The translations under genes and the position numbers were made by a program. The notes beneath the pieces are model-generated. The model saw nothing but the letters and a program-made list of their open reading frames with translations. It had not been told where the DNA came from and did not search any database. A stretch of DNA of 61,740 nucleotides, the filler included, from Collodictyon triciliatum (taxonomy: Eukaryota), in NCBI GenBank assembly GCA_043381765.1. It is 4 parts of 4 records of this genome, joined end to end, with 100 filler letters (N's around TTAATTAATTAA, not from the genome) between each part and the next. Parts side by side here need not be neighbours in the genome. Positions count along the whole stretch, not along the records: positions 17,290 to 34,476 come from JBHJMP010001476.1; 3 more parts are not named here. One strand, given 5' to 3'. Each line of letters begins with the position of its first letter. The first letter of the stretch is position 1. Positions 24,760-27,700 of this stretch are shown in pieces.

Positions 24760-27700
24760 TTATTGCTGGTTGGACTGGGACTGGGACTGGGACTGGTCTG
24801 CTGGCGGCATGGAGAACCACGCGTTGCCCAGCGAGATGTTTGGGCGCAGTGCATTCAGATGGATGGACGAGGGGCTCGGCATCGCCGGCATGGCCGACAG
24901 ACCCGGCAGGGCGGGGTTCTGCAGCGAGATGGGAATCGGGATGGGCAAGCTGATGGCGTTGGGAATCGGCGTGCCGGAGACCTGCGAGACCGGATTGCCG
25001 GGGGCCATGTTCTGCTGGAATGCGCTGGGCAGTGGCAGCGGCGAAGGGAGTGGCAGTCCAAACATGTTCGGCATCGGATTTGGCATGGGCATGGGCATGG
25101 GCAAGGAGGAGGTTGTGGGGGTGTTGGGGTGGATGTGATGGTGATGATGATGGTGGTGATGGTCGTTTCCATTGCCATTTCCATTGCCATTGCCATTTCC
25201 ATTGCTATTACCGTTGCTGTGACTGTGGCTATGACTGTGACCGTTTCCGTTGCTATTACTGTTGCTATTACTGTTGCTATTACTGTTGACAAGTCCTTGA
25301 GCAAGGCCGAGGCTGTTCACGTGGCTGTTGCCGTTGCCGTTGCTGTTGCTGTTGGAGCCGACGAGGTTGCCGTGACTGTGTCCGTTGCTGTTGCCGTTGT
25401 GGGTGCTTCCCGATTGCGACCTGGGCTGCTCGGTGCTTGGGTACAGGAGGAAGCCTCGGACATAGCGTCCGTTGATGCACGCGGTGATGTGCGCACCAAA
25501 CTCGCTGAATCCGTCCACGGTCACCTCGATTTGAGAGCCCGGGGCCAGTGCCTGTGTCTGTGGTGGTGATACGTCGCTCTCTGGGGGTGAATGGCAGACA
25601 TATTCAGCAACTGTTCTTGGTCTTTGGTATTAATCCATTTTTTTTTTTGTATTTATGTGATAGATGATGTATGCAAAGATCAATGTGATATATATGAAAA
25701 TTGTAAAGGGAAAGGTAGGGAAAGAAAACGAAGAAAATGAAATGATTTTGTTAATGGCGGAGCGTGGCAAAGTAAAGCTCAAACCTCGATTTCCTGACGT
25801 TGAGAGAGCAGATGGGAATGGGATTGGTGGGGCTGGAAGTATCAGAGAAAAACACAAAGGTTTGAATGGTTTGACTCGCGATAGAGATGATACAGATGAC
25901 TTCTTTGCAGGGAAAAAAAAATTGAAATATAATCATGATTTGTTGATTACTGAGAGGGATAAGGTGACCGAAGGTTAATTATTACCTGATACATCACTCA
26001 TTCGACGATTCGTCGGAGGAGTCTGGTCTGTTGATCGAAATAGAGTTCATTTTGAGTTAGAATAAGGCAGGATAAAATGAATCCTTTTATTTTGACGCGA
26101 AAAAGTAGTAAAAAAAATTTGAATATTAATAGTAGCTTTTTTCATTAAAAAAAAAAAGAATATTTATTACCAACAGTCGGAGTGTCACGAGGTTGCTCAA
26201 CTGCCGTTGCGGCTTGTTGTGTTTCCAGGATATTATCTCGAACTTCATCACCTACAATGAGATGGAGATGAATACTTTATGGCGTGAATTTATCCAAAAA
26301 AAAACCATGTCTAAATTGTCAGTTTCAATTCTTTTCAGCAATACAGAAACACTGCCAAACTGTTGAGTACTTTAATTTTCCCAAACAGATGATTTACTAA
26401 GAGGATTCTAAGCTCACCATTTGGTCCAAACAAACGTGAACTCCACACAAATTCGTGCTTCACATGCACGCTACACGAGAAGCTTCGATTTCTACAGCAA
26501 GTTCCGCACCGTTGATAGGCACATCCTTTCTTTGCCTGGAAAGCGGTGGTCAAATGTTATATATATGTGATGTACTCTAATTTCTCTGGCACACTCTCCC
26601 TTCCTTTTGATTTACAATATATTCGAGAGAAAATATGTCATACTTGATTTCCACATTCGAGACAATCCCCGCTTTGACCTCGTGCACTCGATACCAGGCC
26701 GCTAATCTCTGAGAGAATGTGAGAAAAATAAAAGTTTTTAAGATAAAGAATAGTTACACATCATTCGTTGGGTTTCAAGATATTTCATATATGTGAAGCA
26801 AACCCACTAGAGAATATTAAAAAAAAATTAAAGAATTTGTACATGCATACCAACAAGCCGATTACAAAAATAAAAAAAAAAACAGCCTTTGAAAACTTAC
26901 TGTGAGAATTTGAGTTTGTCAGTGCGCTTCTGCTGACGTCGTTAGAAGGGGGTTTTATGTACGGACTCCGAATGTGCGCCTAGAGAGGCAAATGGTCATC
27001 AAGCAATTAGACCCAATAAAAAAAATCTATCACTGATTGAAACTCATAGCACCGTTTTTTTTTTTATATATATAAAACAATAGCATAGATTACAAAATGA
27101 CTGTATGTGTACCGATCCGTTAGAAAATGCAATATTGAAGACCAACAACAAAAGAGTGAACGTTGCAATAAACAGTTGCAAATGGATCTATGACAGATGG
27201 AAAACTCACATCAACCACCACGTTTTGGCTGTCTGACCTTTCCACATGTTCCTGGTGCAGCTGTCTTGTGCTGGATGACACCGCATGGGGTTTGCTTGAG
27301 CGATGCAAGACATGAGGGCCCACTGCATGGTGCGGGTAGTGGGCAAGATGATGCGCGTTGTCTGCGTGCCGGGGCTGTATAGAGGTTGTCTGATTTACAA
27401 CATGGAGTAGCTTCTCCAGAGGGGCCTGTGTCTTTGGCGATGCTTTTCCCACATGCTTGGAAGACGAAGACGAGGAAGACGATGGGGATGACGGAGTCGG
27501 CTGCTGTGGACGAGACAGTATCTGTGGGTTTCCTGTGAGCGAAGCAACTGAAGACTTGGAGTTTGGCTGCATGCGCGGTTGAGACATTTGTCCCTGCGGC
27601 GGATTCTGTGCAGACTTGTGCATGTGGGGCAAGGGGCTCATCATAACCGGGTTTGAGTTTGAGTTTGAGTTTGAATTGGAGTTTGAGTTTGAATTGGAGT

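Follow-up and report, generated by a model that had tools for sequence, protein, structure and literature searches.

An expressed nine-exon gene for an LRP1/SHI-type (DUF702) zinc-finger protein in a Diphylleia-like protist

Proteins of the SHI/STY/SRS family are defined by a RING-like zinc finger together with an IGGH motif, and their contacts with DNA and with partner proteins are thought to run through these two domains, according to PMC5440560. According to four reports, the family was gained in early streptophytes or at the base of Streptophyta (PMC7027972, PMC7455551, PMC12866927, PMC13069868), and in such accounts it is repeatedly listed among the base-of-Streptophyta gains tied to terrestrialisation and auxin biosynthesis; PMC9846857 reports it as absent from Micromonas, Ostreococcus and Volvox. 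The literature found on DUF702 was entirely concerned with land plants, and no report of a protist SRS or DUF702 protein was found in the literature searched; among the papers listed for diphyllatean genomes, none dealt with transcription factors. Here, a 61,740-nucleotide stretch of DNA (hereafter, the window), consisting of four joined parts of the Collodictyon triciliatum assembly GCA_043381765.1, was analysed with respect to a finger of this type encoded on the minus strand of the part at positions 17290 to 34476 (JBHJMP010001476.1), which an initial annotation had assigned to the SHI/STY family and placed in a protist-like genome.

Reading of the minus strand confirmed the proposed coordinates of the finger, 26458-26664 (-): the codon of the first Cys opens at 26664 and that of the HVK Lys closes at 26458. 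The finger is encoded in two pieces, 26664-26644 and 26535-26458 (-), which, when spliced, give a complete CX2CX7CX4CX2C2X6CX2H finger with seven Cys and one His, corresponding by pattern match to residues 608-638 of the gene model plus VK. Between them lies the 108-nucleotide intron that the annotation had proposed (26536-26643, minus strand), with GT at 26643-26642 and AG at 26537-26536, and its junction is present in contigs resembling complementary DNA (cDNA). The minus-strand codons before the donor are GAT TGT CTC GAA TGT GGA AAT CAA and those after the acceptor are GCA AAG AAA GGA TGT; hence, the finger is split between Gln and Ala of GNQ|AKK. The intron contains an in-frame TGA and, therefore, no single open reading frame (ORF) shows the finger, which appears in the stop-to-stop ORF list as two separate pieces, as had been claimed.

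Public sequencing runs were sought with positions 23500-29000, and four of them (X1, X2, X3 and X10) were compared with the region. One contig each in runs X1 and X2 carries the finger junction plus seven further ones, and these spliced, cDNA-like contigs match the finger gene at about 99%. At the finger, the contig joint 26532/26643 with two letters between its sides represents the expected splice 26644|26535 with a synonymous GCA>GCT change, and all eight introns, after cut offsets are applied, read CT..AC on the plus strand, that is, GT..AG on the minus strand. Both contigs also have remnants of cDNA adapters and a T-run at 24580, which on the minus strand corresponds to a poly(A) tail; they are therefore regarded as spliced, polyadenylated transcripts. 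The finger gene is transcribed and spliced. Both contigs are interrupted at simple repeats (27644-27708 and 25068-25287), through which the reading frame of the window remains open.

The gene comprises nine exons at about 29044-24580 (-), and its reading frame, uninterrupted between a tentative ATG at 29044 and a TAA at 24762-24760, encodes 983 amino acids. Coding exon 1 (28789-29044) begins at the earliest in-frame ATG that the open stretch offers and is followed by a GT donor at 28788-28787; the X1 and X2 contigs cover 28788-29000 and extend past the end of the compared region. Coding exon 2 (27210-28651), delimited by contig joints 28650/28788 and 26978/27209 with cut offsets, forms the long low-complexity part of the protein, with an acidic run, a stretch rich in Arg, Glu, Asp and Lys, a poly-His run and Asn-Ser repeats, and its only Pfam match was a sub-threshold one to 'Mucin'. 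A 6-nucleotide in-frame insertion relative to the window occurs at 28326, within this low-complexity exon, in both cDNA-like contigs. Coding exon 3 (26901-26979) is delimited by contig joints with AG and GT checked, and coding exon 4 (26644-26708), whose 3′ end encodes C-x2-C-G-N-Q, the first portion of the finger, is delimited by the sequence as well as the joints. Coding exon 5 (26418-26535) contains the second part, AKKGC...HVK, and the residues that follow, and is identified by DUF702 and TIGR01623 matches in addition to contig joints. Contig joints likewise define coding exons 6 (26171-26251), 7 (25986-26027, 42 nucleotides) and 8 (25785-25832, 48 nucleotides), and the last exon (24580-25580) runs through the TAA and a 180-nucleotide 3′ untranslated region to a poly(A) site at about 24580, marked by the T-run in both X1 and X2. 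All of these exons lie on the minus strand.

Simple coding repeats at 25156-25523 and 27732-27915 (Asn-Gly, Asn-Ser and His runs and a CA/TG microsatellite) reach depths of tens of thousands from an unrelated metagenome run. Since these repeats attract unrelated depth, the words shared with environmental runs are mostly repeat matches; in runs X3 and X10 (a metagenome and a metatranscriptome), mostly simple repeats are covered, with a few low-depth pieces in X3. A transcribed neighbouring gene at 23586-24382 (-), represented by a 1042-nucleotide X1 contig with a joint at 23586/23668, starts about 200 nucleotides past the finger gene's poly(A) site, and its long ORF has no Pfam match.

The assignment of the finger to the LRP1/SHI type (DUF702) was upheld by Pfam, by TIGR01623 and by a local plant profile. 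Exon 5 alone matches Pfam DUF702 (PF05142) with 38 bits (E 3e-9; cut-off, 20.6) and the LRP1-type finger model TIGR01623 with 40.7 bits (E 1.6e-10) over profile positions 9-42 of 43, the TIGR01623 cut-off of 42 being set for the whole domain, eight missing positions of which sit on exon 4. The spliced protein scores 56.7 bits with a local profile built from seven plant SRS fingers (alignment A1). In a six-frame scan of the 2859 stop-free pieces of the window, the finger locus scored 48.9 bits and the next best piece 9.6, with no second copy. Resemblance beyond the Cys residues, which the annotation had also noted, is borne out by the shared G-N-x-A-K-K, Y-x-R-C and R-x-F, and 16 of the 19 plant-invariant finger-core columns of alignment A1 are conserved, the His and all seven Cys being among them. 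The annotation had, in addition, treated a Tyr in place of the 'first His' as a deviation, a point that did not hold, as this Tyr is invariant in all seven plant sequences of the alignment. The only other Pfam match of exon 5 at E values up to 10 was PDGF (E 0.078), and no other finger family was matched. As judged from these models, the zinc finger is a genuine LRP1/SHI-type (DUF702) finger.

Two genes of the window were used to place the host. The haem A synthase gene COX15 (20037-22274, minus strand) has at least seven coding segments, and 205 of the 503 candidates for its exon at 21077-21259 passed as matches, the best being from Diphylleia rotans (93%) and the next named eukaryote being Rigifila ramosa (67%). 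Over the whole of COX15, identity is 66% with Diphylleia (610 bits), 51% with Rigifila (328 bits), 44% with a cnidarian and 51% with Rozella. The valyl-tRNA synthetase (ValRS) gene (55288-61042, minus strand), with at least 16 coding segments, is likewise closest to D. rotans: two of the four candidates for its exon at 60136-60312 passed, D. rotans in EukProt (79%) and a cluster of bacterial metagenome-assembled genomes (61%), and there was no plant ValRS among the word-sharing candidates. A tblastn comparison of the whole ValRS with Diphylleia gave 16 segments of 60% mean identity, rising to 74-86% in clean exons; several of the segments extend into introns. The suggestion of a non-streptophyte host is thus supported, with Diphylleia rotans and then Rigifila (CRuMs) as the closest matches, and the host, by the sequences of these genes, is a Diphylleia-like (Diphyllatea, CRuMs) protist, probably distinct from D. 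rotans, and not a streptophyte. Because there are no N letters between 17290 and 34476, COX15 and the finger gene, 2-3 kb apart, lie on one uninterrupted stretch. The introns of the finger gene (108-230 nucleotides; GC content, 0.23-0.45) are similar to the gaps between segments in ValRS and COX15, in agreement with the earlier remark that they are host-style.

A phmmer search of the 40-residue exon against 1.84 billion representatives yielded 15 matches at E values up to 0.001, the best of 40.6 bits, and 12 of them are plant-type SRS proteins; DUF702 was present in all four of these that were scanned. Named cluster members among the matches are Daucus, Selaginella and Diphasiastrum, and two are called 'LRP1 type' by the Joint Genome Institute. 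The other three (P0006, P0011 and P0012) were rejected as unrelated low-complexity proteins. With so short a query only matches above about 35 bits are detectable, and more distant members may therefore have been missed. Metagenomes scanned with alignment A2 yielded 242 confirmed relatives, and the 80 that were kept are all plant-type, with 47-63% identity and no orthologue or closer sequence among them. The finger is uninterrupted at the intron point in 68 of these 80 loci by regular expression and in 11 more by direct reading, and one is cut by a contig end. A conserved basic stretch after the finger, S-T-W-[VI]-[PA] followed by an Arg-rich segment, was recognised by pattern in 69 of the 80, and the remaining 11 showed it when read directly. 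When the 58-residue C-terminal stretch was used to scan metagenomes, 488 pattern stretches matched, none of which was confirmed by tblastn. In a word search with exon 5 and longer candidates, none shared three 5-residue words, a result that is uninformative because plant SRS proteins share fewer than three words with exon 5. Searching the Atlas with exon 5 produced no usable match; the Atlas clusters nearest to a Selaginella SRS protein all have DUF702 and belong to Streptophyta wherever the phylum is known. The finger core of the window protein is 55-71% identical (median, 63%) to 38 distinct plant-type cores, which are 61-97% identical (median, 77%) to one another. Among 40 distinct finger-plus-tail sequences from which a tree was built, that of the window stands on an end branch of 2.52 changes per column, compared with a median of 0.032, and falls in no supported group; on the midpoint-rooted tree it lies outside all 39 plant-type sequences, although the 45 columns used are too few to place it and the set has neither identifiable streptophyte-algal sequences nor an outgroup.

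The structure and expression of the gene, the family membership of its finger and the non-streptophyte nature of its host are established. The gene, single-copy within the window, probably encodes a nuclear zinc-finger transcription regulator, a variant of the family that has diverged outside plants. The only recognisable domain of the protein is the LRP1/SHI-type (DUF702) finger, whose eight ligands would probably hold two zinc ions, and on both sides of it are low-complexity regions rich in His, Gln, Asn, Ser and Pro or acidic and charged. By analogy with plant SHI/STY proteins, the finger would bind nucleic acid or partners, and the low-complexity regions would serve in activation or interaction; because of this analogy of finger and flanks, a nuclear transcription regulator is the most likely role for the protein. 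That the protein binds zinc and DNA, resides in the nucleus and has a regulatory function is inferred. It would best be filed as a divergent variant from outside the plants, having in common with SRS proteins the LRP1/SHI finger but not demonstrably the remaining architecture. Differences from the cDNA contigs are all synonymous between the finger and the stop (four of four, one being TAA to TGA), and the 180-nucleotide 3′ untranslated region differs by eight substitutions and one deletion; although the numbers are small, this pattern fits a functional C-terminal half.

Several observations weigh against the reading of the gene as an SHI-type regulator. The basic tail that follows the plant finger is missing from the window protein, which keeps one of its eight plant-invariant positions, and the last exon matched neither TIGR01624 (LRP1_Cterm) nor any Pfam model at E values up to 10, while the plant control P0014 scored 91.8 bits. 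A faint IGGH-like stretch (25444-25530, minus strand), with I-N-G-R in place of the plant I-G-G-H, lies about 90 residues after the finger, and it is there, at the expected place, that a local IGGH profile has its best match, albeit a weak one (-0.3 bits; E 0.058 for one protein). It keeps 6 of 17 plant-invariant columns, and hhalign aligned 25 columns of it at 36% identity with an E value of 0.038 and a probability of only 1.35%. Composition shuffles reached the real score in 0 of 1000 cases with the IGGH profile and in 12 of 1000 with the combined profile; yet such scores are common in real window sequence, where six unrelated six-frame pieces scored 4-5.9 bits. Because these six pieces outscore the IGGH-like stretch, and the curated models gave no match, neither an IGGH domain nor homology of this stretch is claimed here, and the domain is proposed to be either absent or too eroded to be recognised. 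All five differences from the cDNA contigs in the N-terminal low-complexity half are non-synonymous, and thus much of the protein appears to evolve freely. A profile search of the PDB found no solved structure of the family, its one match (E 0.0069) being a designed protein, and no orthologue in Diphylleia or another protist was found by the word search, phmmer or the metagenome C-terminal scan. The RNA status of X1 and X2 is a software guess, backed by the splicing, T-runs and adapter remnants, and as both runs, which bear two coded organism labels, come from one study, they amount to one line of support. Finally, the placement of the host derives from two genes and a word-indexed search rather than from a phylogenomic tree.

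Other explanations concern whether the finger belongs to the family and to this genome at all. The likeness could be that of a convergent or generic Cys-rich finger unrelated to SHI/STY proteins, an idea to which the unrecognisable IGGH and basic tail lend something, as does the fact that the three unrelated low-complexity proteins P0006, P0011 and P0012 were drawn at similar E values. It is nevertheless very improbable, given that the likeness extends beyond the ligands to G-N-x-A-K-K, Y-x-R-C and R-x-F and takes in 16 of 19 invariant core columns, that curated models match a single exon with E values of 3e-9 and 1.6e-10, and that no other Pfam finger family matches. Hardly credible is an assembly artefact in which plant or algal DNA, from prey or a contaminant, was joined to host DNA: only 2-3 kb, free of N, separate the finger gene from a Diphylleia-like COX15, its eight introns match those of the host in size and GC content, it agrees at about 99% with independent cDNA-like contigs that are spliced, and its sequence is far from every plant-type sequence found. 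To be set against these points are several N gaps elsewhere in the window and the occurrence of pieces of the region in environmental metagenomes.

Two histories were considered for a divergent regulator of this family in a diphyllatean. An old horizontal transfer, in which a diphyllatean ancestor, a phagotroph feeding on freshwater algae, took an SRS gene from a streptophyte and the gene then gained host introns, lost its tail and IGGH domain and diverged fast, is plausible, if not quite probable. The patchy distribution, the plant-type nature of every relative found (12 of 15 phmmer matches and 80 of 80 kept loci of 242), the restriction of Atlas DUF702 clusters to Streptophyta wherever the phylum is known and a finger core still 55-71% identical to plant fingers argue for it, as does the streptophyte origin given for the family in the literature. 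However, the end branch of 2.52 changes per column (median, 0.032) falls in no supported plant clade, the intron inside the finger was found in none of the plant-type loci, composition and introns are host-like, and the set of sequences compared has no identifiable streptophyte-algal members. Ancient vertical inheritance, by which the finger would be older than the split between CRuMs and Archaeplastida and would have survived only in streptophytes and diphyllateans or in unsampled lineages, is rather unlikely. It would accord with a window sequence at or past the edge of plant diversity (median identity of 63%, compared with 77% among plant fingers) and outside all 39 plant-type sequences on the midpoint-rooted tree, and with an architecture and intron positions unlike those of plant-type loci. 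Many independent losses would be required, however, the phmmer search of 1.84 billion representatives returned no other non-plant relative (distant members below about 35 bits may escape it), and none is reported in Micromonas, Ostreococcus or Volvox in PMC9846857. More doubtful still is the extension of this idea, namely that the LRP1/SHI finger is an old eukaryotic DNA-binding module predating that split, that the IGGH domain and the link to auxin are later plant additions, and that the diphyllatean protein keeps a pre-plant, unicellular use.

Elsewhere in the window, positions 1-17200 contain a long gene of several exons on the plus strand. Many of these exons are Kelch-like, with repeated G-G motifs, and others are kinase-like; a stretch near 12.3 kb resembles a transmembrane segment. 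An ORF at 14195-14794 shows sub-threshold Pfam similarity to protein kinase (21.2 bits) as well as to the catalytic domain of guanylate/adenylate cyclases (16.2 bits), and it fits, at this sub-threshold level only, an earlier remark on kinase-cyclase genes in the assembly. A single-exon ORF of 679 amino acids at 35569-37608 (+) has only weak leucine-rich-repeat matches. A run of 872 N at 48308-49179 accounts for six overlapping 'ORFs' at 48.1-49.4 kb and an apparent GC content of 0.185, and further N runs occur at 17190-17289, 34477-34576 and 51756-51855 (paired 44-N).

With an LRP1-type finger expressed in a free-living protist of the CRuMs, the finger can no longer be called exclusive to streptophytes, and the SRS family gains an outgroup or a partner in transfer by which it can be rooted. 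The separation of the finger from the IGGH domain in the protist protein helps to define the contribution of each domain, and the host offers a simple unicellular system for asking what an LRP1-type finger binds. If transfer from algal prey is true, the gene would represent a clean eukaryote-to-eukaryote transfer of a transcription factor that was kept and expressed by the recipient.

The window finger shares with plant SHI/STY/SRS fingers the ligand spacing CX2CX7CX4CX2C2X6C, as given in the abstract of PMC9846857, and the non-ligand signature residues, and, like the plant proteins as described in PMC5440560, the window protein has one finger and poorly conserved low-complexity flanks. It differs in its length of about 983 amino acids, compared with 118-445 for the plant matches; in its host, a CRuMs-like protist, whereas the range given in the literature is Streptophyta only; in the intron inside the finger; and in having neither the S-T-W-V-P...R-R-x-R tail nor an IGGH domain detectable with curated models. 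A parallel is found in WRKY, likewise a 'plant-specific' family that occurs in scattered protists (PMC4350883). Unlike WRKY, SRS/DUF702 had no such protist report in the literature searched, and the choice that both families present is the same, between an ancient origin and transfer.

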